From: Xanthomonas campestris pv. campestris str. ATCC 33913 | GTDB taxonomy: Bacteria; Pseudomonadota; Gammaproteobacteria; Xanthomonadales; Xanthomonadaceae | Assembly: GCF_000007145.1 (NCBI RefSeq) | Contig: NC_003902.1 | Span: 2,426,497 to 2,458,496, forward strand | Reading direction: 5' to 3' | Length of the DNA: 32,000 nt | Part shown: positions 9,627 through 31,787 of the stretch, in pieces | Numbering within the stretch: the stretch's first letter is position 1 | Layout: every line of letters starts with the position of its first letter | Program-made: the position numbers and the translations under genes | Notes under the pieces: model-generated | Seen by the model: the letters and a program-made list of their open reading frames with translations, nothing else | What the model was told of the DNA's origin: nothing | The model's database searches: none

Positions 9627-9711
9627 TTCGCTGGTGTCGTCCTTGTGGACCACACCCCGCCCCCCGGTTCCCCTCCGGGGCCCGGGTCAAGGGGTAGGGG
9701 ATAGGGGCTTC

Positions 9712-9879
9712 ATGGACACACACGCACTCGCACTGCTCAGCGCCTCCGCGCTGACCGTTGGCTTCGGGCTAGTCCGCCTCGCCGGCTGGGTGCGTGATCG
9801 CAAGCATGCCGCGATGGTCGCGCAAATTGAGCAAGCCGCGCTGGTCGCAATCGCATATCGCGAGGTGCGACGTGGCTGA
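9712..9879 (+). CDS. Small hydrophobic phage protein (55 aa), coupled to Rep
   Basis: The ATG at 9712 follows a G-rich RBS region. There is a TM-like segment ([22 protein letters not shown]). The stop TGA at 9877-9879 overlaps a candidate Rep GTG start at 9872 (GTGGCTGA). Confidence 0.45.
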
Positions 9880-10912
9880 CGGCACCTGCTCGTTCTGCGG
9901 TGAACCCACCGTCTACTTTTTCCCCGGTGGCCTCTGCGTTTCTTGTACGTCGAAGAACGCACGCATCCGCATGCAGGAACAGCCCACGCAATCGCGTGAG
10001 CTATCCGCGTTTGATGCATCTGTGGGCGTCATGCAGGCCGCTACGCGCCGCACTGAAATTGCCGCAGAGAAGATCCAAAAGAACAAGCGTGTGGTCGGCA
10101 CAAGCGTGCGTGAGTTCGACGCTGCCCATCCCATCGCATTGACCCCAGAGGGCCAGCGCGCAGCGCTGGCCCTTGGGCTTGTCCATTACAAAACAAGTGA
10201 CACGCGGGCCTCTACAACCGGCACCGTGACCATCGAAATTGACCCGCTACAAGCGCGGGCGCAACGGCTGCGCAAGTCCGTGATTACCGGAGCACGTCTG
10301 CATGACCAGGAAGCGAAAAAAGGCTCCTTCCGTGGTGCGTGGTATTTCCTCACGCTCACCTACCGTGATGGAAGCGACAGCAGCCCTCGTGACGTTAGCG
10401 AACTATTTAAACGCATGCGCGGCCACTTCAATCGCCTTAAATCTGGGCGCGCACGGTGGAACCGTGAAAGCTTTCGTTACGTATGGGTCGGAGAGCTCAC
10501 CCAACGATTCCGACCGCACTACCACGTGATGTTGTGGGTGCCTCAGGGCATGTTTTTTGGCAAGGTCGATCAACGCGGATGGTGGCCCCATGGCAGCAGC
10601 CAAATCGAGAAGGCCCGCAACTGCGTCGGCTATCTCGCCAAATACGCAAGCAAGTTCACCGCCATTACAGCTGCTGCTTTTCCCAAGGGATTTCGCACAC
10701 ACGGCTGCGGTGGACTCAACACCGAATCCAAGCGCGAATTGCGCTGGTGGAAAGCACCCAAAGACGCGCGTGAAGCTCTCGGCGGGGAAGCGGATATCCG
10801 CAAAGCAAAGGGCGGATGGTTCGACAGGCTTACCGGAGAGTTCTGGCCGTCTCCGTGGAAAGTCACATTCATTTTCGGCCGGACATTCGCCTGGAAGGTA
10901 GTCCAACTATGA
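9794..10912 (+). CDS. Rolling-circle replication initiator (gene II / phage CRI-type Rep)
   Basis: It has a HUH-type motif ([11 protein letters not shown]) and a catalytic Tyr motif ([10 protein letters not shown]). There is an N-terminal four-Cys zinc ribbon (CSFCG...CVSC). The true start may be the GTG at 9872, coupled to the upstream ORF, rather than the ATG at 9794. Confidence 0.8.
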
Positions 10913-11205
10913 AAGTGCAGATCATGAGTTCCGCTGTCGCTGTTCGTTCGTTCCCCGCGCGCGAGGGTAAGCCCGCGACGCATTTCCGTGAGCAGACCGC
11001 CGCTGTGCTGCGTGAGGGCGATTTCCCACTGCCGTTCACCATCGGTCTGGACGAGGATCAACCGCCGTATGGCGAGGGCTTCTACATCATCGATCCCAAG
11101 TCGTTGCAGAACAATAAATTCGGCGGTCTCGAGTTCGGCCGTCGCATTCGTCTGATTCCGGACCTCACTGCGAAGCTGCAACAGCAGCCCGCAAAGGTCG
11201 GGTGA
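10909..11205 (+). CDS. ssDNA-binding protein (gene V-like, 98 aa)
   Basis: The ATG at 10909 overlaps the Rep stop (ATGA). The position directly after Rep and the size match inovirus gV. Confidence 0.6.
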
Positions 11206-11208
11206 TTC

Positions 11209-11460
11209 ATGGCGATGTGCGTAGCCCTGCAAGTGGATGGCACGTTGGTGCCCACCGGCCAATCGGTCGGCGAGTGCAGCGGCTACGTGCTCGTCAGTGG
11301 TAGCGAATACAGCGTGTATGCGCTGGTGCAAGAAGCGTTCGCAATGCCCAGCCAGGAGGACGCCGTAGCGTGGTCCACCGGCTGCTGTGGCCTGGTGATC
11401 GTGTGGTTCGTCCTGGGGCGCCTTGCCGGCAGCGTCGCGGGCATGTTCAACGACCGGTAA
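11209..11460 (+). CDS. Hypothetical small phage protein with a C-terminal TM (83 aa)
   Basis: The ORF starts 3 nt after the gV-like stop. It has a hydrophobic C-terminus (CCGLVIVWFVLGRLAGSVAG). It sits where minor coat or morphogenesis genes are expected. Confidence 0.45.
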   Translation: MAMCVALQVDGTLVPTGQSVGECSGYVLVSGSEYSVYALVQEAFAMPSQEDAVAWSTGCCGLVIVWFVLGRLAGSVAGMFNDR

Positions 11461-11487
11461 ATCAATCAATCAAATAGGAGAGACAAC

Positions 11488-11616
11488 ATGGGTGACATTC
11501 TGACTGGCGTGAGCGGTGCTGAAGCTGCTACCGCGATGATCGCAGCGGCCGCAATCATTGCCTTGGTGGGCTTCACCAAGTGGGGTGCCAAGAAGGTTGC
11601 AAGCTTCTTCGGCTAA
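11488..11616 (+). CDS. Major coat protein (gene VIII-like, 42 aa). It falls below the ORF-track size cutoff.
   Basis: A strong RBS (AGGAGAGACAAC) precedes the ATG. The translation is MGDILTGVSGAEAATAMIAAAAIIALVGFTKWGAKKVASFFG. It has an acidic/neutral N-terminus, a hydrophobic core and a basic C-terminus, which is the classic inovirus coat layout. Confidence 0.8.
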   Translation: MGDILTGVSGAEAATAMIAAAAIIALVGFTKWGAKKVASFFG

Positions 11617-11674
11617 TGGTGGTGAGGGCAGGGCGGCGCTTCGGTGTCGCCCTCTCTCTTTCTGGGGTGGGGCG

Positions 11675-11749
11675 ATGATTATTTTGTTGTTCTGTGGATT
11701 CATGGGCGCGCTGTGCGGTTGGGCAGGCGTCAAGGGGTTGGACGCGTGA
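11675..11749 (+). CDS. Possible 24-aa hydrophobic minor coat protein (gVII/gIX-like)
   Basis: The ATG at 11675 follows GGGGTGGGG. The translation is [24 protein letters not shown]. The stop TGA overlaps the GTG start of the next gene (GTGA, 11746-11749). Confidence 0.35.
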
Positions 11750-12804
11750 TTCGCGTTTCGTTGGCAATGCTGATTCTTTTAGCGCTCACGTTCTCTCCTA
11801 TCGTGCATGCTACGTGCGTGCAGACTGAGCCATCAACGTCTGCAAATAACGGTTCGTGGGCCTGTAGCGATCAGGGAGAGGCATTCGCGAAGGCGTCTTC
11901 CATGGGTGTGCCTGCTGATCTTTCGGTGTGTCGTATGAAATCCATCCGTGCGGTGTCTTCTGGTCCTGGCGTTTTCTCGCAGCGCATGACCTATCCCGGC
12001 GACACATGCGGGATCGGGTATGACCTCGATATTGGCACCGGCAATGCCACGTATCCGGACACTGCTACCTGTGCAAAGCGACCGTCCCAAAGCGGCTGGA
12101 CTAATCCGACAGCACCCACGCCATCTGACGTTTGCAACGATGGCTGCTACTACACGTATGCCGTCGATGCTGGTGGCCCCAAGGGCTACACCTATGTGCC
12201 TAGTGGCGCCACGTGCACTACGGATGATGCAGCGCCTCCTATCGATGACGGTGGTGATGGCGATGATGATGGTGGTGGAGACGGTGGCGGCGATGGTGGT
12301 GGAGACGGTGGCGGCGATGGCGGTGGAGACGGCGGTGGAGACGGCGGTGGAGACGGCGGTGGAGATGGTGGTGGAGACGGCGGTGGAGATGGTGACGGCG
12401 GTGGTGATGGCGATGGCGATGGTGACGGTGATGGCGACGGCGACGGTGATGGCGATGGTGATGGTGATGGCGGAACGCTTCCCGGCGACGGTGATGGCGA
12501 GGAAGGCGGCGAGGGCGCACCCATGTCTGAGCTCTACAAGAAAAGTGGCAAGACTGTTGAGTCTGTGCTGAGCAAATTCAATACGCAGGTGCGCGGCACG
12601 CCCATGGTGGCCGGTATCGGCGATTTCATGAAAGTACCCTCCGGCGGATCGTGTCCTGTGTTCTCGCTGGGTGCGTCGAAGTGGTGGGACGCCATGACGA
12701 TCAATTTTCACTGTGGCGGCGATTTCCTGGCGTTTTTGCGCGCGGCTGGCTGGGTGATTCTCGCCATTGCTGCGTACGCCGCAATTCGCATTGCTGTGAC
12801 CTGA
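11746..12804 (+). CDS. Adsorption/minor coat protein (gene III-like) with an acidic Gly/Asp repeat linker
   Basis: The GTG at 11746 gives the signal peptide (M)[21 protein letters not shown]|TC. There is a Cys-rich N-domain, then (GGGD)x10 and (GD)n linkers, and a C-terminal membrane anchor ([18 protein letters not shown]). The ORF track shows the frame open from 11644. Confidence 0.75.
12244..12474 (+). repeat. In-frame tandem 12-nt (GGxGGxGGxGAy) and 6-nt (GGyGAy) repeats inside the gIII-like gene
   Basis: I read this directly. It encodes [12 protein letters not shown](GGGD)n...(GD)n. Confidence 0.9.
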
Positions 12805-12814
12805 GGGCGACGCT

Positions 12815-13135
12815 ATGCAAGCAGGTTGGTTCAACGATTTGACCGCGTGGCTGTGGCGTGCGGTCAAGATGGTGTGGCAGGCGATTGTCGATTTTGTGGG
12901 CGACTTGTTTGTGATGTGGCTGGAACAGTCGCTGTCGGCAATTCTCTATGTGCTGACGTTGCTGCCCATGCCCGACTTCATGAAGGGGCAGAGCATTGGC
13001 GGCATGCTCGGTAATGCGGGTAGCACCATCTTGTGGTTTGCCGATGTATTCATGATTGGTCCGGCGCTGGTGATGATCGGCGCGGCCATGATTTTTTTTC
13101 TCCTTCGCCGCGTGCTGACGCTCGGGATTTGGTGA
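12815..13135 (+). CDS. Minor coat protein (gene VI-like, 106 aa, multi-TM)
   Basis: It lies between the gIII-like and Zot-like genes. It is hydrophobic, and its stop is 1 nt before the zot ATG. Confidence 0.6.
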   Translation: MQAGWFNDLTAWLWRAVKMVWQAIVDFVGDLFVMWLEQSLSAILYVLTLLPMPDFMKGQSIGGMLGNAGSTILWFADVFMIGPALVMIGAAMIFFLLRRVLTLGIW

Positions 13136-13136
13136 C

Positions 13137-14459
13137 ATGCTCGTATTCAATGAAGGTGTGCCGCGTGCCGGCAAGAGTTACGACGCGGTAAAGAATCACA
13201 TTCTTCCGGCGCTCAAAAAGGGGCGTCGTGTGTTTGCGCGATTGAATGGGTTGCGCTTTGACCGCATCGCCAAGCACCTGGGCATGGCGGAGAATGATGT
13301 TCAGCACTTGCTTGTGCTGGTGGACACCAAGGACGTGTCGAAGTTGTTTGCGTGCACGCAGGACGAGTCGGGCAAGTGGTGTATCCCGGACGAGTTCAAA
13401 GACGCATTGGTTGTGATCGATGAGGTGCATGAGTTCTACGTCAACGAGCGCAAGCCGCTCGCGCCGGCCGTCGAGAATTTTTGGGCGCTGCTTGGCCAGA
13501 ACGGCGGCGATGCCGTGATCATGACGCAATGGATCAACCGCTTGCACTCGGCGGTCAAGGCGCGCATCGAGAAGAAAAACACGTTCCAGAAGCTCACCGC
13601 TATCGGCATGAAGGGCCGCTATCGCGTGACGTATTTCCACACGACCTCACCGGGCAAGTTTGAGAAGGTCGGCGGTCAAACGCTCAAGTACGACCCGGCC
13701 ATTTTTCCGCTCTATGACGGCTATGCGCCTGGTGCCGAGAACACCGAGGTTTACGAGGAGGGCGGTAAAAACGTCTGGGCCGCGATGGCTGTGCGCGCTG
13801 CCATCTTCCTCACACTCGGCGGGGTCGGCATCTACTTCTTCATGCACTATTTCACCAAGGATCGCGCCGATCCCAACAAGCCTATGGCATCTGCCAGCCA
13901 GACCACCAAACCCACGCACGTTGGCGCGGGGTTTGCTAACGGTGCGCCGAGTGTGCCGATTCAGCCGCCTCCGCCTGATCCGCTCGCAGACCTCACGCAA
14001 GAGCAGCGCTATGTGGCTCAGCTTGCCGACAAGGGCCGCATTCGGCTCTCCGCGCGGGCGCGCGTAGGTGATCAGGACCGTGCGTGGATTCAGTGGATTG
14101 ACGCGAGCAACAACGTCGTGGAGGAGTTGGATCTGTCGCAGTTGCGCGCCCTGGGTTACAGCGTCAGCGTCGTCACGTATGGCGTGCGTCTTTCGGCCGG
14201 CAAGCACATCATGGTGGCCACCGCGTGGCCCTGGACCGCGCCCATTCGTGAGAAGGACGCACGGCTTTACAACATGGCCCCAGACGGGAGCGGCGGCGCT
14301 GCTGGCGTTGCGACCGCAGGGAGTGACGGCGGCGGCGCTGACCGCGACCAGGTGCGCGGCGGCGTGATCGAGTACGGACCGCGCACCCAAGGCACGTTCC
14401 CGGACAACAAGGGTTACAGTTCAAGCACCAGCACGCCGGCCACCACGTTGCAGATGTAG
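13137..14459 (+). CDS. zot: Zot / gene I-like phage assembly ATPase (440 aa)
   Basis: An N-terminal Walker A motif (FNEGVPRAGKSY) and a Walker B-like motif (LVVIDEVHEF) are present. There is a central TM (AAMAVRAAIFLTLGGVGIYFFMHYF), then a ~190-aa C-terminal domain. Confidence 0.85.
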   Translation: MLVFNEGVPRAGKSYDAVKNHILPALKKGRRVFARLNGLRFDRIAKHLGMAENDVQHLLVLVDTKDVSKLFACTQDESGKWCIPDEFKDALVVIDEVHEFYVNERKPLAPAVENFWALLGQNGGDAVIMTQWINRLHSAVKARIEKKNTFQKLTAIGMKGRYRVTYFHTTSPGKFEKVGGQTLKYDPAIFPLYDGYAPGAENTEVYEEGGKNVWAAMAVRAAIFLTLGGVGIYFFMHYFTKDRADPNKPMASASQTTKPTHVGAGFANGAPSVPIQPPPPDPLADLTQEQRYVAQLADKGRIRLSARARVGDQDRAWIQWIDASNNVVEELDLSQLRALGYSVSVVTYGVRLSAGKHIMVATAWPWTAPIREKDARLYNMAPDGSGGAAGVATAGSDGGGADRDQVRGGVIEYGPRTQGTFPDNKGYSSSTSTPATTLQM

Positions 14460-14462
14460 TTT

Positions 14463-14476
14463 CGTGACGCGTCACG
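14463..14476. promoter_or_regulatory. Perfect 14-bp palindrome CGTGACGCGTCACG between the convergent zot and 102-aa genes
   Basis: I read this directly. It is mirrored at 16070-16083. It could be a bidirectional stop signal or a protein-binding site. Confidence 0.3.
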
Positions 14477-14478
14477 AT

Positions 14479-14787
14479 TTAGCACGGATCGTTTGGCAAT
14501 TCTTGCCATCCATTAGATAGCCGACGGAAGCGCTTGTGTTGAATGCATCGTTCGTTCGATTCCAGCGCTCGTAGTTGCAGCGTCGGCAGTTCTGCAGGTT
14601 GGGTGCGGGGCCTGTACAGCGGTTGCGGGGCGACTGGTAGCGCTGCACTGACGCTGCGCATGGTGAAGTAGCCCAGGCATAGCGCCACCACGCCGGCAAG
14701 CGCTGCGGTCATCAGCTGGCCTACGAAAATGCCTAAGGCGATTTCCCACCAAAGCCCATCATGGTTGTTCTGCGGTCTGTAGCTCAT
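14479..14787 (-). CDS. Phage membrane protein with a C-terminal two-Cys motif (102 aa), unknown function
   Basis: The ATG at 14787 follows a GGGGG RBS. There is a hydrophobic N-terminal segment (WWEIALGIFVGQLMTAALAGVVALCLGYF). The C-terminus is ERCIQHKRFRRLSNGWQELPNDPC. An identical copy is at 15759-16067 and a paralog is at 8368-8808. Confidence 0.65.
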   Translation of the reverse strand: MSYRPQNNHDGLWWEIALGIFVGQLMTAALAGVVALCLGYFTMRSVSAALPVAPQPLYRPRTQPAELPTLQLRALESNERCIQHKRFRRLSNGWQELPNDPC

Positions 14788-14824
14788 ACGGCCCCCTGTG
14801 ACGATGAGCGGGCATTGTAGGGGT

Positions 14825-14843
14825 GTAGGGGCATAGCCCCTAC
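14825..14843. promoter_or_regulatory. Hairpin GTAGGGGC-ATA-GCCCCTAC preceded by the direct repeat TGTAGGGG TGTAGGGG
   Basis: I read this directly. It lies between the DUF3653-like stop and the 102-aa gene start. It is mirrored at 15703-15721 with a different loop. Confidence 0.4.
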
Positions 14844-14853
14844 GGATAACGCC

Positions 14854-15180
14854 TCACACGCGGCCTTTGCGCCTCCGCGCCGGTGCTGATGATAATCCTG
14901 CGCATTTCGCCGCTGGACCCGTATCCACCCGTTGCAAACCCGCCTTTTTCTCCTGCCGTTTTCTGAACTGGTCACGGAGATAGATCACGCCGGCCGGCCG
15001 TTTGGGCGGTGTCTTGGCGCGGCCCTCGGCCATCATGGTTGACCACTCACGGGCTATCGTGCAGGTCAGCGATAGCCACTGTAGATCCGATGGTGCGATG
15101 GATCTGCCTTCGGGCGTGATGAGGTGGCCACCCTGGAACGAAAAACCGGCCCAAGGGCCGGTGAGTGTTTTATTTCGCAT
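14854..15180 (-). CDS. DUF3653-like phage protein, variant 1 (108 aa)
   Basis: The ATG at 15180 has GGAG upstream. The translation is MRNKTLTGPWAGFSFQGGHLITPEGRSIAPSDLQWLSLTCTIAREW... with a basic C-terminal tail. It is homologous to, but diverged from, ORF 15354-15692. The family name is from memory. Confidence 0.6.
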   Translation of the reverse strand: MRNKTLTGPWAGFSFQGGHLITPEGRSIAPSDLQWLSLTCTIAREWSTMMAEGRAKTPPKRPAGVIYLRDQFRKRQEKKAGLQRVDTGPAAKCAGLSSAPARRRKGRV

Positions 15181-15252
15181 CCGCCAAACTCCATGTGGCG
15201 GGCCATGGTCGCCGCCGCGGCGTGATCGCAGCAGCAAGCCATGCCAGTAGCC

Positions 15253-15280
15253 TCCTGACATAATATACATTATGCGAAAT
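15253..15280 (-). other. Complete dif-like XerCD site B. The minus strand reads ATTTCGCATAA-TGTATA-TTATGTCAGGA.
   Basis: The layout is 11-6-11, with the same central TGTATA and inner arm bases as E. coli dif (GGTGCGCATAA-TGTATA-TTATGTTAAAT). It sits at the junction of the two prophages. Confidence 0.75.
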
Positions 15281-15353
15281 GGACTGTATTGACGCTCCTG
15301 TGCCTCGTGGCGGTCTATCAATGGTTGTCCCTCCACAGGAAGCGGACCGGACA

Positions 15354-15692
15354 ATGCAGCTAGACACCTACGATCACGTAGACCTGACCGGCCCCTGGGC
15401 CGGTTTTGGTTTTCAGGGCTATCGATTCTTCACCCCGGAAGGCCGCGAAGTGCGGCCGGAAGAAATGCGGTGGTGGTCGCTGACATGCACCATCGCGCGC
15501 GAGTGGGCGCTGATGATGGCCGAAGAGCGGGAGCGTGTGTGGCATCCCCGCCCGGCCGAAGTCATCTACCTGCGGGACGTGATCCGGCGCAGGCGTGAAA
15601 GGCGGTTATCAGTGGTGGATGGCGCGGGGTCCGCCGACAGGGCGCGAGTGATCCGAGCAACGCGGGGGCCAAGAGATCCACGGCGCGGGTGA
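15354..15692 (+). CDS. DUF3653-like phage protein, variant 2 (112 aa)
   Basis: The ATG at 15354 has an AGGAAG RBS. The translation is MQLDTYDHVDLTGPWAGFGFQGYRFFTPEGREVRPEEMRWWSLTCTIAREW... The ORF-track start at 15279 lies inside site B and is less likely. Confidence 0.6.
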   Translation: MQLDTYDHVDLTGPWAGFGFQGYRFFTPEGREVRPEEMRWWSLTCTIAREWALMMAEERERVWHPRPAEVIYLRDVIRRRRERRLSVVDGAGSADRARVIRATRGPRDPRRG

Positions 15693-15758
15693 GGCGTTAT
15701 CCGTAGGGGCTCTGCCCCTACACCCCTACAATGCTCGCTCATCGTCACAGGGGGCCGT

Positions 15759-16067
15759 ATGAGCTACAGACCGCAGAACAACCATGATGGGCTTTGGTGG
15801 GAAATCGCCTTAGGCATTTTCGTAGGCCAGCTGATGACCGCAGCGCTTGCCGGCGTGGTGGCGCTATGCCTGGGCTACTTCACCATGCGCAGCGTCAGTG
15901 CAGCGCTACCAGTCGCCCCGCAACCGCTGTACAGGCCCCGCACCCAACCTGCAGAACTGCCGACGCTGCAACTACGAGCGCTGGAATCGAACGAACGATG
16001 CATTCAACACAAGCGCTTCCGTCGGCTATCTAATGGATGGCAAGAATTGCCAAACGATCCGTGCTAA
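15759..16067 (+). CDS. Phage membrane protein with a C-terminal two-Cys motif (copy 2)
   Basis: The translation is identical to 14479-14787. Confidence 0.65.
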   Translation: MSYRPQNNHDGLWWEIALGIFVGQLMTAALAGVVALCLGYFTMRSVSAALPVAPQPLYRPRTQPAELPTLQLRALESNERCIQHKRFRRLSNGWQELPNDPC

Positions 16068-16086
16068 ATCGTGACGCGTCACGAAA

Positions 16087-17409
16087 CTACATCTGCAACG
16101 TGGTGGCCGGCGTGCTGGTGCTTGAACTGTAACCCTTGTTGTCCGGGAACGTGCCTTGGGTGCGCGGTCCGTACTCGATCACGCCGCCGCGCACCTGGTC
16201 GCGGTCAGCGCCGCCGCCGTCACTCCCTGCGGTCGCAACGCCAGCAGCGCCGCCGCTCCCGTCTGGGGCCATGTTGTAAAGCCGTGCGTCCTTCTCACGA
16301 ATGGGCGCGGTCCAGGGCCACGCGGTGGCCACCATGATGTGCTTGCCGGCCGAAAGACGCACGCCATACGTGACGACGCTGACGCTGTAACCCAGGGCGC
16401 GCAACTGCGACAGATCCAACTCCTCCACGACGTTGTTGCTCGCGTCAATCCACTGAATCCACGCACGGTCCTGATCACCTACGCGCGCCCGCGCGGAGAG
16501 CCGAATGCGGCCCTTGTCGGCAAGCTGAGCCACATAGCGCTGCTCTTGCGTGAGGTCTGCGAGCGGATCAGGCGGAGGCGGCTGAATCGGCACACTCGGC
16601 GCACCGTTAGCAAACCCCGCGCCAACGTGCGTGGGTTTGGTGGTCTGGCTGGCAGATGCCATAGGCTTGTTGGGATCGGCGCGATCCTTGGTGAAATAGT
16701 GCATGAAGAAGTAGATGCCGACCCCGCCGAGTGTGAGGAAGATGGCAGCGCGCACAGCCATCGCGGCCCAGACGTTTTTACCGCCCTCCTCGTAAACCTC
16801 GGTGTTCTCGGCACCAGGCGCATAGCCGTCATAGAGCGGAAAAATGGCCGGGTCGTACTTGAGCGTTTGACCGCCGACCTTCTCAAACTTGCCCGGTGAG
16901 GTCGTGTGGAAATACGTCACGCGATAGCGGCCCTTCATGCCGATAGCGGTGAGCTTCTGGAACGTGTTTTTCTTCTCGATGCGCGCCTTGACCGCCGAGT
17001 GCAAGCGGTTGATCCATTGCGTCATGATCACGGCATCGCCGCCGTTCTGGCCAAGCAGCGCCCAAAAATTCTCGACGGCCGGCGCGAGCGGCTTGCGCTC
17101 GTTGACGTAGAACTCATGCACCTCATCGATCACAACCAATGCGTCTTTGAACTCGTCCGGGATACACCACTTGCCCGACTCGTCCTGCGTGCACGCAAAC
17201 AACTTCGACACGTCCTTGGTGTCCACCAGCACAAGCAAGTGCTGAACATCATTCTCCGCCATGCCCAGGTGCTTGGCGATGCGGTCAAAGCGCAACCCAT
17301 TCAATCGCGCAAACACACGACGCCCCTTTTTGAGCGCCGGAAGAATGTGATTCTTTACCGCGTCGTAACTCTTGCCGGCACGCGGCACACCTTCATTGAA
17401 TACGAGCAT
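16087..17409 (-). CDS. zot: Zot / gene I-like assembly ATPase (copy 2)
   Basis: The translation is identical to 13137-14459. Confidence 0.85.
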   Translation of the reverse strand: MLVFNEGVPRAGKSYDAVKNHILPALKKGRRVFARLNGLRFDRIAKHLGMAENDVQHLLVLVDTKDVSKLFACTQDESGKWCIPDEFKDALVVIDEVHEFYVNERKPLAPAVENFWALLGQNGGDAVIMTQWINRLHSAVKARIEKKNTFQKLTAIGMKGRYRVTYFHTTSPGKFEKVGGQTLKYDPAIFPLYDGYAPGAENTEVYEEGGKNVWAAMAVRAAIFLTLGGVGIYFFMHYFTKDRADPNKPMASASQTTKPTHVGAGFANGAPSVPIQPPPPDPLADLTQEQRYVAQLADKGRIRLSARARVGDQDRAWIQWIDASNNVVEELDLSQLRALGYSVSVVTYGVRLSAGKHIMVATAWPWTAPIREKDARLYNMAPDGSGGAAGVATAGSDGGGADRDQVRGGVIEYGPRTQGTFPDNKGYSSSTSTPATTLQM

Positions 17410-17410
17410 G

Positions 17411-17731
17411 TCACCAAATCCCGAGCGTCAGCACGCGGCGAAGGAGAAAAAAAATCATGGCCGCGCCGATCATCACCAGCGCCGGACCAATCATGAATAC
17501 ATCGGCAAACCACAAGATGGTGCTACCCGCATTACCGAGCATGCCGCCAATGCTCTGCCCCTTCATGAAGTCGGGCATGGGCAGCAACGTCAGCACATAG
17601 AGAATTGCCGACAGCGACTGTTCCAGCCACATCACAAACAAGTCGCCCACAAAATCGACAATCGCCTGCCACACCATCTTGACCGCACGCCACAGCCACG
17701 CGGTCAAATCGTTGAACCAACCTGCTTGCAT
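17411..17731 (-). CDS. Gene VI-like minor coat protein (copy 2)
   Basis: The translation is identical to 12815-13135. Confidence 0.6.
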   Translation of the reverse strand: MQAGWFNDLTAWLWRAVKMVWQAIVDFVGDLFVMWLEQSLSAILYVLTLLPMPDFMKGQSIGGMLGNAGSTILWFADVFMIGPALVMIGAAMIFFLLRRVLTLGIW

Positions 17732-17741
17732 AGCGTCGCCC

Positions 17742-18800
17742 TCAGGTCACAGCAATGCGAATTGCGGCGTACGCAGCAATGGCGAGAATCACCCAGCCAG
17801 CCGCGCGCAAAAACGCCAGGAAATCGCCGCCACAGTGAAAATTGATCGTCATGGCGTCCCACCACTTCGACGCACCCAGCGAGAACACAGGACACGATCC
17901 GCCGGAGGGTACTTTCATGAAATCGCCGATACCGGCCACCATGGGCGTGCCGCGCACCTGCGTATTGAATTTGCTCAGCACAGACTCAACAGTCTTGCCA
18001 CTTTTCTTGTAGAGCTCAGACATGGGTGCGCCCTCGCCGCCTTCCTCGCCATCACCGTCGCCGGGAAGCGTTCCGCCATCACCATCACCATCGCCATCAC
18101 CGTCGCCGTCGCCATCACCGTCACCATCGCCATCGCCATCACCACCGCCGTCACCATCTCCACCGCCGTCTCCACCACCATCTCCACCGCCGTCTCCACC
18201 GCCGTCTCCACCGCCGTCTCCACCGCCATCGCCGCCACCGTCTCCACCACCATCGCCGCCACCGTCTCCACCACCATCATCATCGCCATCACCACCGTCA
18301 TCGATAGGAGGCGCTGCATCATCCGTAGTGCACGTGGCGCCACTAGGCACATAGGTGTAGCCCTTGGGGCCACCAGCATCGACGGCATACGTGTAGTAGC
18401 AGCCATCGTTGCAAACGTCAGATGGCGTGGGTGCTGTCGGATTAGTCCAGCCGCTTTGGGACGGTCGCTTTGCACAGGTAGCAGTGTCCGGATACGTGGC
18501 ATTGCCGGTGCCAATATCGAGGTCATACCCGATCCCGCATGTGTCGCCGGGATAGGTCATGCGCTGCGAGAAAACGCCAGGACCAGAAGACACCGCACGG
18601 ATGGATTTCATACGACACACCGAAAGATCAGCAGGCACACCCATGGAAGACGCCTTCGCGAATGCCTCTCCCTGATCGCTACAGGCCCACGAACCGTTAT
18701 TTGCAGACGTTGATGGCTCAGTCTGCACGCACGTAGCATGCACGATAGGAGAGAACGTGAGCGCTAAAAGAATCAGCATTGCCAACGAAACGCGAATCAC
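17742..18800 (-). CDS. Gene III-like adsorption protein (copy 2)
   Basis: The translation is identical to 11746-12804, including the repeat length. The GTG start is at 18800. Confidence 0.75.
18072..18302 (-). repeat. Gly/Asp-coding tandem repeats inside gIII-like copy 2
   Basis: It is the mirror of 12244-12474. Confidence 0.9.
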
Positions 18801-18871
18801 GCGTCCAACCCCTTGACGCCTGCCCAACCGCACAGCGCGCCCATGAATCCACAGAACAACAAAATAATCAT
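18797..18871 (-). CDS. Possible 24-aa hydrophobic minor coat protein (copy 2)
   Basis: It is the mirror of 11675-11749. Confidence 0.35.
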
Positions 18872-18929
18872 CGCCCCACCCCAGAAAGAGAGAGGGCGAC
18901 ACCGAAGCGCCGCCCTGCCCTCACCACCA

Positions 18930-19058
18930 TTAGCCGAAGAAGCTTGCAACCTTCTTGGCACCCCACTTGGTGAAGCCCACCAAGGCAATGATTGCGGCCG
19001 CTGCGATCATCGCGGTAGCAGCTTCAGCACCGCTCACGCCAGTCAGAATGTCACCCAT
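18930..19058 (-). CDS. Major coat protein (gene VIII-like, 42 aa, copy 2)
   Basis: It is the mirror of 11488-11616. CAT at 19056-19058 confirms the start. Confidence 0.8.
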   Translation of the reverse strand: MGDILTGVSGAEAATAMIAAAAIIALVGFTKWGAKKVASFFG

Positions 19059-19085
19059 GTTGTCTCTCCTATTTGATTGATTGAT

Positions 19086-19337
19086 TTACCGGTCGTTGAA
19101 CATGCCCGCGACGCTGCCGGCAAGGCGCCCCAGGACGAACCACACGATCACCAGGCCACAGCAGCCGGTGGACCACGCTACGGCGTCCTCCTGGCTGGGC
19201 ATTGCGAACGCTTCTTGCACCAGCGCATACACGCTGTATTCGCTACCACTGACGAGCACGTAGCCGCTGCACTCGCCGACCGATTGGCCGGTGGGCACCA
19301 ACGTGCCATCCACTTGCAGGGCTACGCACATCGCCAT
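19086..19337 (-). CDS. Hypothetical small phage protein (83 aa, copy 2)
   Basis: The translation is identical to 11209-11460. Confidence 0.45.
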   Translation of the reverse strand: MAMCVALQVDGTLVPTGQSVGECSGYVLVSGSEYSVYALVQEAFAMPSQEDAVAWSTGCCGLVIVWFVLGRLAGSVAGMFNDR

Positions 19338-19340
19338 GAA

Positions 19341-19637
19341 TCACCCGACCTTTGCGGGCTGCTGTTGCAGCTTCGCAGTGAGGTCCGGAATCAGACGAAT
19401 GCGACGGCCGAACTCGAGACCGCCGAATTTATTGTTCTGCAACGACTTGGGATCGATGATGTAGAAGCCCTCGCCATACGGCGGTTGATCCTCGTCCAGA
19501 CCGATGGTGAACGGCAGTGGGAAATCGCCCTCACGCAGCACAGCGGCGGTCTGCTCACGGAAATGCGTCGCGGGCTTACCCTCGCGCGCGGGGAACGAAC
19601 GAACAGCGACAGCGGAACTCATGATCTGCACTTTCAT
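19341..19637 (-). CDS. ssDNA-binding protein (gene V-like, copy 2)
   Basis: It is the mirror of 10909-11205. Confidence 0.6.
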
Positions 19638-20752
19638 AGTTGGACTACCTTCCAGGCGAATGTCCGGCCGAAAATGAATGTGACTTTCCACGGAGACGGC
19701 CAGAACTCTCCGGTAAGCCTGTCGAACCATCCGCCCTTTGCTTTGCGGATATCCGCTTCCCCGCCGAGAGCTTCACGCGCGTCTTTGGGTGCTTTCCACC
19801 AGCGCAATTCGCGCTTGGATTCGGTGTTGAGTCCACCGCAGCCGTGTGTGCGAAATCCCTTGGGAAAAGCAGCAGCTGTAATGGCGGTGAACTTGCTTGC
19901 GTATTTGGCGAGATAGCCGACGCAGTTGCGGGCCTTCTCGATTTGGCTGCTGCCATGGGGCCACCATCCGCGTTGATCGACCTTGCCAAAAAACATGCCC
20001 TGAGGCACCCACAACATCACGTGGTAGTGCGGTCGGAATCGTTGGGTGAGCTCTCCGACCCATACGTAACGAAAGCTTTCACGGTTCCACCGTGCGCGCC
20101 CAGATTTAAGGCGATTGAAGTGGCCGCGCATGCGTTTAAATAGTTCGCTAACGTCACGAGGGCTGCTGTCGCTTCCATCACGGTAGGTGAGCGTGAGGAA
20201 ATACCACGCACCACGGAAGGAGCCTTTTTTCGCTTCCTGGTCATGCAGACGTGCTCCGGTAATCACGGACTTGCGCAGCCGTTGCGCCCGCGCTTGTAGC
20301 GGGTCAATTTCGATGGTCACGGTGCCGGTTGTAGAGGCCCGCGTGTCACTTGTTTTGTAATGGACAAGCCCAAGGGCCAGCGCTGCGCGCTGGCCCTCAG
20401 CGGTCAACGCGATCGGATGGGCAGCGTCGAACTCACGCACGCTTGTGCCGACCACACGCTTGTTCTTTTGGATCTTCTCTGCGGCAATTTCAGTGCGGCG
20501 CGTAGCGGCCTGCATGACGCCGACAGATGCATCAAACGCCGATAGCTCACGCGATTGCGTGGGCTGTTCCTGCATGCGGATGCGTGCATTCTTCGACGTG
20601 CAAGAAACGCAGAGGCCACCGGGGAAAAAGTAGACGGTGGTGTCACCGCAGAACGAGCATGTGCCGTCAGCCACGTAGCACCTCGCGATATGCGATTGCG
20701 ACCAGCGCGGCTTGCTCAATTTGCGCGACCATCGCGGCGTGCTTGCGATCAC
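19634..20752 (-). CDS. Rolling-circle replication initiator (copy 2, N-terminal variant)
   Basis: It matches 9794-10912 except for substitutions in the first ~118 codons (for example D26Y, EP37-38DT, P118A). An alternative GTG start is at 20674. Confidence 0.8.
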
Positions 20753-20834
20753 GCACCCAGCAGGCGAGACGGACTAACCCGAAGCCAACGGTCAGCGCGG
20801 AGGCGCTGAGCAGTGCGAGTGCGTGTGTGTCCAT
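20667..20834 (-). CDS. Small hydrophobic phage protein (55 aa, copy 2)
   Basis: It is the mirror of 9712-9879 with two substitutions (G25C, R53L). Confidence 0.45.
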
Positions 20835-20918
20835 GAAGCCCCTATCCCCTGCCCCTTGACGCGGACCCCGGAGGGGAGCCGGGGGCGCGGTGTCATACGG
20901 CGTAGGACACGAGGCGCA

Positions 20919-20947
20919 TGTAACATGAAGCAGGACACTTCTGTCAA
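20919..20947 (-). promoter_or_regulatory. Putative promoter of the Rep/structural operon of prophage 2 (TTGACA-N17-GTTACA on the minus strand)
   Basis: It has the same geometry as 9598-9626. It lies 13 bp from the divergent repressor-2 GTG. Confidence 0.4.
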
Positions 20948-20959
20948 ACGGTATATGAC

Positions 20960-21424
20960 GTGGACACCATAAATAAATTGCTTGACACAGCGCGAAAAGC
21001 ATGCTCGCGCGACTCAGACAACAGCGTTGCGCTGTCGCTTGGCGTGTCGCGGAATTCGGTTTCCGTGTGGCGCAAAGGCGGAAAAATCACCGACGCACAT
21101 CTGATGGCGCTTATCGACCTGGCACAGGCTGACCCTGCGCTAGCAGTGAAAGTGCGAGAGGAAGAAGCCGGATCGGCCGTCGAACGCAAGGCGTGGAGTG
21201 CGCTGTGGGACAGACTGTCCCCGGTCACTACGGTGATCGGGGGCCTGGTCCTGGCAATCGGCATGATGCCGGCGACGGGTCGGACGAAAGGCCTTGATAT
21301 TCAACAGCTTGCACGGGTTGACGGCGCATATTCTGTATATTATGTCATAATAACGCCTGCAGGAGCATCAGTTCAAACCATTGCGTACGACAACCCAGTC
21401 AAAGCCGTCAGATGGCCGCAGTAA
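20960..21424 (+). CDS. Putative phage immunity repressor 2 (HTH N-terminus, hydrophobic C-terminal segment). The 3' end reads through att site C.
   Basis: It has a GTG start and an HTH-like segment (SDNSVALSLGVSRNSVSVWRKGG). ERKAWSALWDRLS is followed by the hydrophobic helix VTTVIGGLVLAIGMM. Codons GAYSVYYVII are encoded by site C. The last 52 nt overlap the convergent TraX-like gene. Confidence 0.6.
   Translation: MDTINKLLDTARKACSRDSDNSVALSLGVSRNSVSVWRKGGKITDAHLMALIDLAQADPALAVKVREEEAGSAVERKAWSALWDRLSPVTTVIGGLVLAIGMMPATGRTKGLDIQQLARVDGAYSVYYVIITPAGASVQTIAYDNPVKAVRWPQ
21323..21350 (+). other. XerCD-type hybrid att site C: GGCGCATATTC-TGTATA-TTATGTCATAA (phage arm + centre + dif XerD arm)
   Basis: I read this directly. 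The right 14 nt match the XerD side of site B (TGTATATTATGTCA). Confidence 0.7.
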
Positions 21425-22023
21425 TACATGTAGAACGCTCTACCCGTCCGCGGGATGGCCCATGACAGGTAAGCCAAACCTGCAACCGGCAGCGCAAGCA
21501 GCGGCCACAACGTCCGGTTCACCAAGCACAAGAGCACTAGCGGAATCACCAAGAGCACAACAACCGACACTGCCCTTGGCCATCGCCAGCCCGCTGGATT
21601 GCGCCAGAACAGCCAGGCACCGAGTACAACAGCCAGCCCGTTCCACCGATAGTCAACCAGGTAAGGTGCCGGCAACAGGCAGAACGCCAACACAATCCAT
21701 TTTCGTTCTTCGATCGCACGAATACAGACAGCTGCCAATGCGAAGGACAAGAGAATATTGAGCGGCAGTGCCCGATTGAATGCGATCGCCGCAATCGGTG
21801 TCGCAACGAGTCCCCACAGGAACAAACGCTTGATCAACTTGGCGACATCAGCACCCGGCTGCGCCAAATTGTAGGCAAACACCAGTGCGAACAATGGAAA
21901 TGCCACGCGGCCCAGTTCTGCAATGACCGGCATATAGCCCAGGTGCAAAATCTTCAAGGTGTGGTCGCCTGTCATAAACAGCAGCGCGAGCCACTTCACC
22001 AATTCACGGCCTCCGCTTGTCAT
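21373..22023 (-). CDS. TraX-family membrane protein
   Basis: A 216-aa polytopic membrane protein with an N-terminal LVKWLALLFMTGDH motif typical of the TraX family. The family is from memory. Confidence 0.55.
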   Translation of the reverse strand: MTSGGRELVKWLALLFMTGDHTLKILHLGYMPVIAELGRVAFPLFALVFAYNLAQPGADVAKLIKRLFLWGLVATPIAAIAFNRALPLNILLSFALAAVCIRAIEERKWIVLAFCLLPAPYLVDYRWNGLAVVLGAWLFWRNPAGWRWPRAVSVVVLLVIPLVLLCLVNRTLWPLLALPVAGLAYLSWAIPRTGRAFYMYYCGHLTALTGLSYAMV

Positions 22024-22151
22024 GCGATCCCTCCTTGTTCGACGACGGCTCGATGAGCTAATGCGGATTTACTGATCAATTTATCTAACTCTGGAGCTGC
22101 CAGCAGTTCTGCAGCACCGGCCACCAATCCCAGCCATTCTTTGCAGCCCTG

Positions 22152-23945: not shown

Positions 23946-23958
23946 CGGTGGTGCGGAA

Positions 23959-24558
23959 TCAGGCCGCGCTGTCGCGCGGAATGTAAGGCGCGTCGCCAGT
24001 GGCGTGATCGGTCGCGTCGCGCACGGCGATTACGCCGGGCAGGCGCCCCATCAAGGTCTTCTCGATGCCCTGCTTCAAGGTGACATCGGCCATGCCGCAG
24101 CCGTGGCAGCCGCCGCCGAAGCGCAGCAACACCACGCCCTCGGCCGAGACTTCCTGCACCGCGACGCGCCCGCCATGCGAGGCCAGCTGCGGGTTGATCT
24201 CGTTCTCTACCACCCAGCGCACGCGTTCCACCATCGACGCCGACTCAGCCGGTGCCTCGCCCTTGATCTTGGGCGCCTTGATGGTGAGTTGCTGGTTGCC
24301 GGTGGACTGGGTGACGTAGTCGATCTCGGCGCCATCCATCCACGGCACGCTGGCGGCCACGACATACAAGGTGAAGCCATCGCAATCGATGGCCCATTCG
24401 TCGCCGGACAAGTCGGCCGGCTCGGCGAACTCGAGTTTGGCGTCTGCACGCGGGGTGCCCGCGTCCACCGCGCTCAGGCGCACGCCCATGCCGGGCACAC
24501 CCTCGCGCTCGATGAGCTTGCGGAAATAGGTCTGGGCTTTGTCGGATATCTGGATCAT
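23959..24558 (-). CDS. nfuA: Fe-S cluster biogenesis protein NfuA
   Basis: From the ATG at 24558 it reads [15 protein letters not shown]..., with a C-terminal Nfu domain ([20 protein letters not shown]). It is collinear with E. coli NfuA. Confidence 0.85.
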
Positions 24559-24650
24559 GCGGGTTATTCTACCGCTCAATGCGCCCCCGCTCATGGAACA
24601 CCGTGATCCTGGTGGGTGCTTCTGTTCGCCACTTCGCGAGGCCGCCTGTC

Positions 24651-25007
24651 ATGACCGATCTCATCCCCCTGGAACAGGCCCATTGCCTGCCCCGCAAGGG
24701 CAGTGACCACAAGCTGGGCGAAGCCCGCCTGGCCGAGCTGTTGCCCCAGGTCCCCGGCTGGGAGCTGGCCGAAGCCGGCATGGCCATCACACGCACATTT
24801 CGCTTCGCCGACTATTACCGCACCCTCGCCTTCGTCAATGCGCTGGCCTGGATCGCCCACCGCGAAGACCACCATCCGGACCTGGGCGTGCATTACGACC
24901 GCGTGGTGGTGCGCTATTCCACCCATGACGTGGGCGGGCTGAGCGAGAACGACTTCATCTGCGCGGCCAAGGTAGCGCAGCTCTTCGATCAAGGAATCAC
25001 CGCATGA
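24651..25007 (+). CDS. phhB: Pterin-4-alpha-carbinolamine dehydratase
   Basis: The ATG is at 24651 and the product is 118 aa. It has the EDHHPD...V.....THD signature ([25 protein letters not shown]). Confidence 0.8.
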
Positions 25008-25426: not shown

Positions 25427-25553
25427 CCACCACGCATCCATCATCGCGCCATGGCCATCCTGCGCCAGCGGATGGCCGAGCGCAGACACGCGCAGCTGAA
25501 CTCGCCACGCACTCCGCCGGATCGCCATTCTTTTCGACGAGGTCGTTGCGTCA

Positions 25554-31709: not shown

Positions 31710-31757
31710 TCGTTACGCGTGACTGACGCTGTCCTGGGCAACCCGGATGGTGGCGAC

Positions 31758-31787
31758 AAAAAAAGCGGCCTTCGGGCCGCTTTTTTT
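31758..31787. terminator. Bidirectional rho-independent terminator
   Basis: The sequence is A7-GCGGCC-TTCG-GGCCGC-T7, between the convergent rne and the minus-strand ORF ending at 31791. Confidence 0.85.

Follow-up and report, generated by a model that had tools for sequence, protein, structure and literature searches.

The head-to-head inovirus prophages at the replication terminus of ATCC 33913, a Xanthomonas campestris pv. campestris (Xcc) strain, are very probably an array of IMEX, elements that exploit Xer, in which two sibling phages used opposite halves of dif and the spacer between them was then inverted. We analyzed a 32,000-nt stretch of contig NC_003902.1 (the window), whose features are collected in the table. 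The arrangement itself is already known. "Symmetrical head-to-head" Lf prophages around dif of ATCC 33913 (AE008922) were published by He 2007 (PMC2246292, citing da Silva 2002) and again in Darrasse 2013 (PMC3826837), and the 12,151-bp block from S1 to S3 is the "phiLf-homologous sequence" deleted by Yeh et al. In these accounts, the two prophages are copies of one phage. None of the three (PMC2246292, PMC3826837, and Yeh et al.) mentions that the attP sites have opposite polarity, that dif is built from phage DNA, that the spacer is inverted, or that D1 (phiLf-UK ORF9) belongs to the other prophage; Yeh et al. remark only that ORF9 differs from phiLf ORF112. The mechanism, together with the flip polymorphism, is a modest new insight.

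Two sibling phages in a mirror-image pair

A repeat search of the window returned a single inverted repeat with arms of 5,202 nt and 821 nt between them. Checked base by base about the axis x+y=30546, positions 10148-14810 and the reverse complement of 15736-20398 form an unbroken, 100% identical run of 4,663 nt. The outer 487 nt of the arms hold 20 mismatches (9668 to 10147) and the inner 52 nt hold three (14811, 14834, and 14858). A preliminary description of this DNA had proposed a 4.66-kb identical repeat around a spacer of about 0.9 kb, with the first differences at about 10147 and at 14811/14834. The exact runs are indeed separated by 925 nt, and the first mismatches fall exactly where proposed. 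Each left-arm ORF is mirrored on the opposite strand by an ORF of equal length, including the Zot, gIII, gVI, 83-aa, and 102-aa ORFs, for which counterparts at 30546-x had been proposed. Cruciform or hairpin toxicity is unsupported, as the arrangement is kept in many strains. Pfam matches confirm the inovirus gene set, while a Pfam search with the 102-aa membrane protein gave no match. Within gIII lies a Gly/Asp-rich 12-nt tandem repeat (12220-12513) that differs in length among strains but is the same in both window arms.

Features of the two prophages and their att sites (window coordinates)
Feature	Coordinates	Strand	Evidence or remarks
R1, phiLf 18.2K repressor-like gene, DUF3693	9099-9653	-	PF12472, E=7.5e-16; MH206184 annotation
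S1, attL-type hybrid site	9199-9226	+	ATTTCGCATAA TGTATA GAAGGTGCCGT
Left arm of inverted repeat	9661-14862	+	exact core 10148-14810; outer 487 nt phiLf-type, inner 52 nt phage-B-type alleles
gII replication initiator, 346 aa	9872-10912; mirror 19634-20674	+; mirror -	PF23343, E=5.8e-31
gV ssDNA-binding protein	10909-11205; mirror 19341-19637	+; mirror -	PF02303, E=4e-38
83-aa Inovirus_G7P_1 protein	11209-11460; mirror 19086-19337	+; mirror -	PF17091, E=3e-31
gVIII major coat protein, 42 aa	11488-11616; mirror 18930-19058	+; mirror -	PF25631 on homologous 42-aa gene of related loci
gIII adsorption protein	11644-12804; mirror 17742-18902	+; mirror -	
gVI minor coat protein	12815-13135; mirror 17411-17731	+; mirror -	
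gI/Zot assembly ATPase, 440 aa	13137-14459; mirror 16087-17409	+; mirror -	PF05707, E=3e-68
102-aa membrane protein	14479-14787; mirror 15759-16067	-; mirror +	
Segment between exact runs, 925 nt	14811-15735	.	non-repeated spacer 14863-15683 plus two 52-nt inner arm ends
D1, DUF3653 gene, 108 aa (phiLf-UK ORF9)	14854-15180	-	PF12375, E=1.7e-8
S2, sole complete dif	15257-15284	-	ATTTCGCATAA TGTATA TTATGTCAGGA read on - strand; inverted vs S1, S3
D2, phiLf ORF112, DUF3653	15354-15692	+	PF12375, E=2.5e-5
Right arm of inverted repeat	15684-20885	-	mirrored phage genes; outer alleles B-type, inner alleles phiLf-type
R2, phage B DUF3693 repressor-like gene, 154 aa	20960-21424	+	PF12472, E=3e-14
S3, attR-type hybrid site	21323-21350	+	GGCGCATATTC TGTATA TTATGTCATAA

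Outside the core, the outer modules R1 and R2 (both DUF3693) differ, as do the inner modules D1 and D2 (both DUF3653; ORF9 and ORF112 share 66% nucleotide and 62% amino acid identity according to Yeh et al.). The 3' end of R1 runs through S1 into host DNA, and that of R2 runs across S3. The pair consists of two different sibling phages, phiLf and a phage that we call B (R2, the same core, and D1). Phage B occurs alone, with the same R2-core-D1 structure, in at least three genomes. An inverted (palindromic) duplication of one phiLf prophage whose ends diverged later would account for the identical core and the perfectly mirrored gene order. However, the modules are different, the attP sites are of opposite types, B is also present as a single lysogen, and the divergence between the arms is sharply modular instead of gradual; we consider duplication almost certainly wrong. 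The preliminary description had likewise argued for two different phages, and the R and D modules, the att sites, and the single lysogens of each type bear this out.

The free phiLf record MN263053, which carries an UNVERIFIED flag in GenBank, reads cagtcc-ATTTCGCATAATGTATA-gaaggtgccg, joining the reverse complement of the window running on from 15279 to the window sequence starting at 9202. Its first 823 nt (nt 1-823) align to window 16086-15264 without a mismatch, and D2 is native to phiLf. The left inner flank matches free phiLf for 403 nt only, with 3 mismatches, and the match ends before D1. As it stands, the left element has 100% identity to MH206184, a sequence synthesized from AE008922:2435698-2441774.

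Relative to the window core, that of B in single lysogens carries only 2 substitutions and that of free phiLf 3. Wherever B and phiLf cores are found, only 2 to 9 substitutions per 4.66 kb separate them, so most of the arm identity requires no in situ conversion. The identity had been attributed to recent gene conversion or recombination; allele linkage upholds a reciprocal crossover, but most of the identity is older than the co-residence of the two phages. Among the loci compared, the window arms are the sole pair with zero substitutions and a hypervariable pIII repeat of equal length, which fits added gene conversion. Repeated exchange or conversion probably brought the arms to 100% over 4,663 nt, with in situ conversion as the last step only.

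Opposite attP polarity and a dif built from phage DNA

Of the three dif-like sites in the window, S1 and S3 lie on the + strand and S2 on the - strand. S1 agrees with dif in its XerC arm and central region, and its XerD side is a degenerate phiLf arm; its right half shows no difference from free phiLf attP (MN263053 nt 807-834), and at all Xcc loci compared the site adjoins host flank X1. S3 is mirror-symmetric to S1 (30546-9212=21334), with a degenerate XerC side from phage B and the central region and XerD arm of the host. The spacer carries the chromosomal dif, which was missed in the earlier reading of the sequence: dif of ATCC 33913 is listed at S2 (PMC2731167), and within the window the 23-nt core conserved in >120 species is found at S2 only. 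S2 fits the lineage-wide consensus, GC skew switches there, and KOPS-like motifs converge on it. S2 is thus the predicted functional dif of the chromosome. phiLf supplied its XerC arm and phage B its XerD arm, so that both arms are phage DNA.

The attP of phiLf copies the XerC arm and central region of dif on the gene strand, as do those of phiXv2, XacF1, and Cf1c. At the homologous position of its genome, phage B has an attP that copies, on the opposite strand, the central region plus the XerD arm. This design is shared with Cf2, a filamentous phage of X. citri whose integration is described as XerD-dependent in Yeh 2020 (Virology 548:160). The B attP (GGCGCATATTC TGTATA TTATGTCAGGA) and the Cf2 attP (TGCGTATAGTC TGTATA TTATGTCAAAG; MK512531) both have a degenerate XerC side with a conserved center and XerD arm, and in both phages the site sits in the DUF3693 repressor gene, at its 3' end and opposite in strand to gII-gI. 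In contrast, the B core is that of phiLf (2 substitutions per 4.66 kb) and has only about 79% identity to Cf2. Phage B attP is of the Cf2 type; use of XerD by B is putative.

In our model, phiLf inserts so that a complete dif re-forms on its right, at the DUF3653 end. Phage B, with an attP of the other polarity, inserts in the opposite orientation and on the other side of dif, which it re-forms on its left. Either order of integration yields host - S1[C d] - phiLf -> - S2[C D] - <- B - S3[c D] - host. By its sequence, this product is a mirror image whose sole complete dif is built from one arm per phage; the recombinase presumed to catalyze each integration is XerC or XerD. The mirror geometry follows from the opposite attP polarity, and the long inverted repeat from the nearly identical 5-kb core in both phages. 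Homologous recombination within the repeat then flips the short D2-dif-D1 segment.

Inversion of the spacer among Xcc genomes

The two spacer orientations were compared in a map of 19 distinct Xcc assemblies. D2 occurs with phiLf-type phages and D1 with B in free phiLf, five single lysogens, and six unflipped multi-lysogens. Single phiLf-type lysogens read HL-[S+Cd]-R-core-D2rc-[S+CD]-HR and single B lysogens read [S+CD]-D1rc-core(rev)-R2-[S+cD]-HR, with R2 always adjoining the HR flank in B lysogens. In the six multi-lysogens, every site is direct, the forward phage carries D2, and B carries D1. D1 is native to phage B, as its linkage in nine genomes shows; in the unflipped and single-B state it adjoins the B core. 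In eight genomes (the window, 8004, and CP155999 among them), D1 and D2 are exchanged and S2 is inverted, although the flipped examples HG764958, HF570389, and CM002574, short-read scaffolds in which arm genes are truncated, may contain assembly errors. Across the map, S2 orientation and spacer orientation correlate perfectly. The head-to-head layout recurs in related genomes, and complete Xcc genomes show both isomers, in line with the inversion expected earlier from such a repeat. The same geometry is present in X. vasicola and X. floridensis.

In the window, the left arm has phiLf-type outer alleles and B-type inner alleles (14811, 14834, and 14858), and the right arm is the reverse. From these diagnostic SNPs, the crossover lies within the identical core. 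ATCC 33913 is in the inverted state, in which the two prophages have traded their DUF3653 modules and S2 points opposite to S1 and S3; the segment inverted relative to the primary integration product spans at least 14811-15735.

Xer site-specific recombination could have made this arrangement directly, without homologous recombination, by integration in either orientation or by inversion between inverted sites. The arms of dif are close to palindromic, Xer action on a pair of inverted sites would flip the intervening DNA, and CP012145 has a whole phiLf-type prophage reversed between inverted and direct complete sites. However, the SNPs of the inner arms move together with the D modules, so the exchange points lie within the long arms, outside 14811-15735. 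The unflipped isomer has no inverted dif-like pair around the spacer, all three sites being direct, and in the flipped 8004, whose arms are 87% identical, a 674-nt exact tract abuts the spacer just where a homologous crossover is needed. We regard a Xer-only origin as highly unlikely. A point against the inversion reading is that the left phage of 8004 would need D2 before the flip, whereas other phiLf2-type prophages have a third DUF3653 variant.

The chimeras R1-core-D1 and R2-core-D2 might instead have arisen by RF-RF recombination in free phages and then integrated, with no chromosomal inversion. Filamentous phages recombine readily, and a synthetic R1-core-D1 genome (phiLf-UK) is viable. 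Yet this leaves the S2 inversion in exactly the module-swapped genomes unexplained, a D swap without attP-R would require a second crossover in the approximately 28-bp att site, and integrated chimeras would still yield direct sites. This route is scarcely credible.

An assembly artifact, either a fold-back that made the second arm or an arbitrary orientation of the 821-nt spacer, is extremely unlikely. The preliminary description had raised this concern. A spacer cannot be oriented across exact repeats that exceed Sanger or short-read inserts; with exact arms of 4.66 kb, the 2002 Sanger assembly's choice of orientation may in principle have been arbitrary, and several related short-read scaffolds show odd truncations. 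However, the outer and inner flanks differ between the arms, each belonging to a phage type that occurs alone elsewhere, and Yeh et al. physically removed the block that corresponds to S1-S3 of ATCC 33913. The independent assembly CP155931, which has another chromosome length and other coordinates, shows 0 differences in 20,339 nt from window 5354-25692, and its spacer is oriented alike. Genomes whose arms are only 87 to 97% identical (89 to 97% in the unflipped CP142009), and whose assembly is therefore unambiguous, also show the head-to-head layout, with either spacer orientation. On the CP155931 identity and the shared layout, fold-back misassembly was rejected.

Related systems and consequences of the inversion

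In Vibrio cholerae, the dif1 IMEX arrays (TLCphi-RS1-CTXphi; VGJphi) consist of integrase-less filamentous phages that exploit host XerCD (PMC5357621). With its conserved XerC arm and center and divergent XerD arm, phiLf attP resembles TLCphi attP as given there. As at V. cholerae dif1, several elements are stacked at the Xcc dif, one re-creating a usable dif for the next. The Vibrio arrays are, to our knowledge, co-oriented, whereas the Xcc pair is head-to-head with dif between, arises from attP classes that mimic opposite dif halves, and has its dif subsequently flipped by homologous recombination. Plastid genomes also form isomers by flip-flop inversion between large inverted repeats, which are homogenized by copy correction. 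Both systems have long near-identical inverted repeats around a short unique segment found in both orientations; the Xcc segment differs in bearing the chromosome dimer-resolution site and phage modules, and its isomers are seen between strains.

Since each prophage now lies between inverted att sites, Xer should be unable to excise it. From our model, chimeric phages such as phiLf-UK would be expected to arise, and the orientation of dif would be expected to be polymorphic.

The mirror-image repeat and its gene content

A repeat search identified two inverted-repeat arms of 5,202 nt each, 821 nt apart, and base-by-base comparison about the axis x + y = 30546 recovered an unbroken complementary run of 4,663 nt within them. 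A SNP count between the arms, which the preliminary description had called for, gave 23 differing positions: 20 in the outer 487 nt, 3 in the inner 52 nt (14811, 14834, and 14858), and none within the 4,663-nt core. The long mirror-image repeat is real as first described, its arms, exact run, and mismatch positions having been reproduced. The mirrored ORF map bore out the claim that every left-arm ORF has an opposite-strand partner of equal length.

Pfam searches of the window's own proteins identified the inovirus set REP_ORF2-G2P, Phage_DNA_bind, Inovirus_G7P_1, and Zot, with a DUF3693 repressor-like gene at each outer end (R1 and R2) and a DUF3653 gene at each inner end (D1, which is phiLf-UK ORF9, and D2, which is phiLf ORF112). 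The full inovirus gene set is present in both arms. This Pfam set, with identity to MH206184 (100%) and MN263053 (98.8%), places both elements among Inoviridae (Lophivirus-like) prophages. The 6.06-kb phage genome is wholly covered by 11 annotated features, and no recombinase domain that would mark an element-encoded integrase was found by Pfam in 10 proteins representing all main genes of the unit, small unannotated ORFs aside. The gIII gene carries a 12-nt tandem repeat coding for Gly/Asp, which differs in length among nearly all strains and phages compared and is equally long in the two window arms.

The left host flank holds a very large ORF with Glycoamylase/GH94 domains that resembles a cyclic beta-1,2-glucan synthase-like gene; its length is 2,638 aa within the window, and related loci have 2,885 aa. 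Directly right of the third dif-like site lies a TraX-family gene, within a stretch of low GC content (0.57 to 0.58 over 21001-22500, compared with about 0.65 in the flanks). Because the TraX-family gene adjoins dif in all loci of X. campestris pv. campestris (Xcc) examined, it either belongs to the host or was fixed there long ago.

Coordinates of the repeat, the dif-like sites (S1 to S3), and flanking genes in the window
Feature	Position	Strand	Sequence	Description
Left arm	9661-14862			inverted repeat
Right arm	15684-20885			inverted repeat
Core	10148-14810			left copy of the unbroken run
Core, mirror	15736-20398			right copy of the unbroken run
gIII tandem repeat, left	12220-12513
gIII tandem repeat, right	18034-18333
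S1	9199-9226	+	ATTTCGCATAA TGTATA GAAGGTGCCGT	XerC arm good, XerD arm none
S2	15257-15284	-	ATTTCGCATAA TGTATA TTATGTCAGGA	XerC arm good, XerD arm good
S3	21323-21350	+	GGCGCATATTC TGTATA TTATGTCATAA	XerC arm none, XerD arm good
Large ORF	4-7920	+		Glycoamylase/GH94 domains
TraX-family gene	21373-22023	-

The dif-like sites and the attP classes of the two phages

The ATCC 33913 pair of Lf prophages facing each other across dif is already known, first from the genome paper (da Silva 2002). He et al. 2007 (PMC2246292) describe symmetrical head-to-head Lf prophages around dif, and Darrasse et al. 2013 (PMC3826837) describe “two contiguous and symmetric copies.” S2 is a 28-bp site with a consensus XerC arm, a 6-bp center, and a XerD arm, while S1 and S3, whose positions are mirror-symmetric, each lack one arm. 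Among the three sites, only S2 contains the 23-nt core TTCGCATAATGTATATTATGTCA, which occurs once per stretch in 120 loci of other species (Xanthomonas, Rhodanobacter, Dyella, Stenotrophomonas, and even betaproteobacteria). GC skew changes sign across the locus, from positive values in 1-8000 to negative ones in 22000-32000, so that S2 lies at the switch in strand-composition polarity expected of a terminus. For ATCC 33913, Carnoy and Roten (PMC2731167) named TCCTGACATAATATACATTATGCGAAAT as dif and placed it 257 bp from the maximum of GC skew; this sequence is S2. All eight GGGNAGGG motifs (E. coli KOPS-like, which may not be the Xanthomonas KOPS) point to S2, lying on the + strand at 4687, 6991, 8229, 9692, and 11626 and on the - strand at 18913, 20847, and 26407; the sample is small, and two of the eight are mirrored duplicates, so this convergence would be weak support for a functional dif. 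Two motifs lie within each prophage, and their direction implies that each phage's insertion keeps FtsK-type polarity converging on the dif rebuilt by that phage.

To compare layouts, we mapped the window modules and sites onto 19 distinct Xcc assemblies, retrieved via the two DUF3653 proteins and rotated to a common orientation. In the single phiLf-type lysogens CP155951 and CM002632, the order is left host flank (HL), the host segment abutting S1 (X1), a + site with a good XerC and a degenerate XerD arm, repressor, forward core, reverse-complemented D2, a complete + site, and right host flank (HR). The right prophage of the window corresponds to a second phage, B (R2, core, and D1), found alone in CP067005, CP155978, and CP124745 as a complete + site, reverse-complemented D1, reversed core, R2, a + site with a degenerate XerC and a good XerD arm, and HR. 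These layouts imply that the host dif is + in window orientation and that dif is regenerated on the right by phiLf-type phages and on the left by B. We rejected a natively - host dif with S1 and S3 as odd sites, since single lysogens have both sites +, abutting HL/X1 and HR. We likewise rejected a left prophage delimited simply by a pair of 15-mer dif cores, the layout of the GenBank record for phiLf-UK, because those cores are mutually inverted.

Scanning described phages revealed two attP classes. The first has the XerC arm and center on the gene strand (phiLf, phiXv2, XacF1, and Cf1c). The second has the center and XerD arm on the opposite strand, as in Cf2 (TGCGTATAGTC TGTATA TTATGTCAAAG), which is reported to be a XerD-dependent integrative phage (Yeh 2020). 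The attP of B, reconstructed from S2 and S3 of unflipped genomes (spacer not inverted) and single lysogens as GGCGCATATTC TGTATA TTATGTCAGGA, is of this class: center and XerD arm are conserved, the XerC arm is degenerate, and the site and the structural genes are on opposite strands. Integration of phiLf at dif is on record (Lin 2001, as cited in PMC2731167). The arm make-up of S1, S2, and S3 matches the attP × dif products of single lysogens, and the elements fit the IMEX class (integrative mobile elements exploiting Xer) by their dif-like attP, their insertion at the chromosomal dif, and the hybrid dif-like sites at both prophage ends. With two attP classes of opposite polarity, a mirror image is the expected product of sequential Xer integration in either order. 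On these arm sequences, phiLf is the source of the XerC arm of the central dif, and B is the source of the XerD arm. The earlier view that two different phages are present, rather than a plain duplication, holds, given the opposite attP types and the occurrence of each type alone in other Xcc.

The suggested comparison with related genomes showed that the head-to-head geometry around dif recurs in other Xcc, X. vasicola, and X. floridensis. Other Xanthomonas loci (X. floridensis on a 4,969-nt contig, X. vasicola, and Xanthomonas sp. LMG 31884) have DUF3653 genes diverging from dif, either on one side or on both, and the X. vasicola order of dif, D1-like gene, 102-aa gene, and reversed Zot is the geometry of B. 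A dif XerD arm ending in CAGGA may, in some species, mark a resident B-type phage.

The record fSU1 (PQ067315; 10,956 nt, “complete genome”) holds S2-like and S3-like sites, along with 672 nt of 99.6% identity to the TraX flank of the host (window 21329-21999). With two att-type sites and host flank, it looks like a prophage region, not a packaged genome, and we rejected it as a free form of B. It further supports linkage of D1 to the XerD-arm site.

Orientation of the spacer and identity of the arms

The attP of free phiLf (MN263053), cagtcc-ATTTCGCATAATGTATA-gaaggtgccg, joins the D2 side to the R1 side. Nucleotides 1-823 of MN263053 match window 16086-15264 with 0 mismatches, while for the window's left inner flank the match extends over just 403 nt, contains 3 mismatches, and ends at D1. 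Native phiLf is thus left-outer, core, and right-inner sequence. The unflipped state, in which all three sites are direct, D2 is on the forward phage, and D1 is on B, was found in CP142009, CP124534, CP077958, CP155990, CP066972, and CP156004, the last a triple lysogen. The flipped state, with D1 and D2 exchanged and S2 inverted, was found in the window, CP155931, 8004 (CP000050), CP155999, CM002574, HF570389, the triple lysogen HG764958 (whole middle prophage inverted), and the rearranged CP012145. Across the 19 assemblies, module linkage and the orientation of S2 agree in every case. Both spacer orientations thus occur among complete Xcc genomes, in line with the expectation that the repeat should drive inversion.

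At the 23 differing positions, the left arm is of phiLf type at all 20 outer sites and of B type at the 3 inner ones, and the right arm has the reverse. This pattern marks a single reciprocal crossover within the identical core, hence an inversion by homologous recombination, and it agrees with the proposal that the two phages had recombined. A programmed switch, with an invertase acting at short inverted repeats, does not fit: Pfam found no recombinase domain among the proteins scanned, and the inner-arm SNPs move with the spacer, placing the crossover within the long homologous arms. Both isomers occur in genomes with arms diverged enough for reliable assembly: flipped 8004, with arms 87% identical overall, and unflipped CP142009 (89 to 97%). 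A 674-nt perfectly identical inverted tract in 8004 (8784-9457 of the fetched locus) abuts the spacer, spans the Zot 3′ end and the 102-aa gene, and is likely a crossover or conversion footprint. The independent assembly CP155931 matches the window exactly over 20,339 nt.

The arm identity had been attributed to recent conversion or recombination. Relative to the window core, B from a single lysogen has 2 substitutions, free phiLf has 3, phiLf in CP156004 has 6, and an R3-type relative has about 250. The low divergence of the B and phiLf cores implies one core with alternative immunity and att modules, and most of the arm identity, as read from these sequences, predates ATCC 33913. In situ gene conversion as its entire cause was accordingly downgraded, as no more than 2 substitutions separate single-lysogen B from the window core. 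What stands of that attribution is that the window arms are the only pair compared with zero substitutions and equal pIII Gly/Asp repeat length, this hypervariable repeat giving 4 to 97 alignment gap columns in every other pair. Some in situ homogenization of the window arms is likely, although not proven.

The anticipated hairpin or cruciform instability found no backing. There is no sign of palindrome toxicity, and hairpin-driven instability fits poorly with a spacer of 0.8 to 0.9 kb and with a layout that has persisted in many strains. One-arm deletions occur in some Xcc genomes, several of which are short-read scaffolds. The derivatives CP012145, HG764958, HF570389, and CM002574 have a large one-arm deletion or a whole reversed phiLf-type prophage, the latter between one inverted and one direct complete dif-like site; some of the four are short-read scaffolds in which collapse artifacts are possible.

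Exemplar genomes and expected consequences of the flip

The left element, 9202-15264, is phiLf-UK (MH206184) at 100% identity. That genome was synthesized from ATCC 33913, AE008922:2435698-2441774 (Yeh et al., bioRxiv 10.1101/2023.12.30.573655), corresponding to window 9202-15278. The window is accordingly from the terminus of the ATCC 33913 chromosome. The same authors deleted a 12,151-bp “phiLf-homologous sequence,” which maps to window ~9200-21350, and read the 62% amino acid identity of ORF9 and phiLf ORF112 as a strain difference. The RefSeq/ICTV exemplars phiLf-UK (MH206184/NC_073754) and phiLf2 (MH218848/NC_073753) were synthesized from flipped-isomer prophages and carry D1, which in all unflipped genomes is a B gene, the DUF3653 gene of the neighboring Cf2-type phage. 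The MH206184 junction tgacat-AATTCGCATAATGTATA-GAAGG is the XerD-arm side of S2 fused to S1. Both exemplars thus appear to be chimeras with the neighboring phage's DUF3653 gene. Such synthetic genomes are infectious, as published, which implies that DUF3653 modules are interchangeable. A third DUF3653 variant, D3 (127 aa), is on some forward phages among CP156004, CP155990, and CP066972, and the replication module of phiLf2 is of another kind (Rep_trans, 369 aa). Across this group of phages, DUF3653, attP, repressor, and Rep modules are freely reshuffled.

In the accessible literature, outside da Silva 2002, Qian 2005, and Yeh 2020, we found no attP-polarity explanation, phage-built dif, or interstrain dif-flip polymorphism, and a literature search on IMEX, inversion, and homologous recombination returned no account of dif being flipped.

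In the flipped state, each prophage would lie between inverted att sites, so that Xer recombination could not excise it, and dif would be inverted relative to its native orientation. An inverted dif works in E. coli. We give an even chance to the following model: in Xcc multilysogens, the sole complete dif is a phage-assembled hybrid on a segment toggling by homologous recombination between mirror-image prophages, and each flip would invert dif, turn the att sites from direct to inverted as a lock on Xer excision, and swap DUF3653 modules, giving new viable chimeras. The phiLf-UK and phiLf2 genomes as deposited would be products of such flips.

If true, this would be a natural, recurrent dif-inversion polymorphism in an IMEX array, and we know of no IMEX array for which one has been described. 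The two attP classes, mimicking opposite dif halves, in themselves provide a simple rule for why the prophages face each other, with the presumed functional dif made of phage DNA. Exemplars that are apparently chimeric affect comparisons that take “ORF9 versus ORF112” as strain divergence. Finally, both dif orientations occur within the same flanks in natural isolates, which offers a ready-made test of whether dif orientation or Xer-mediated prophage excision matters in vivo.
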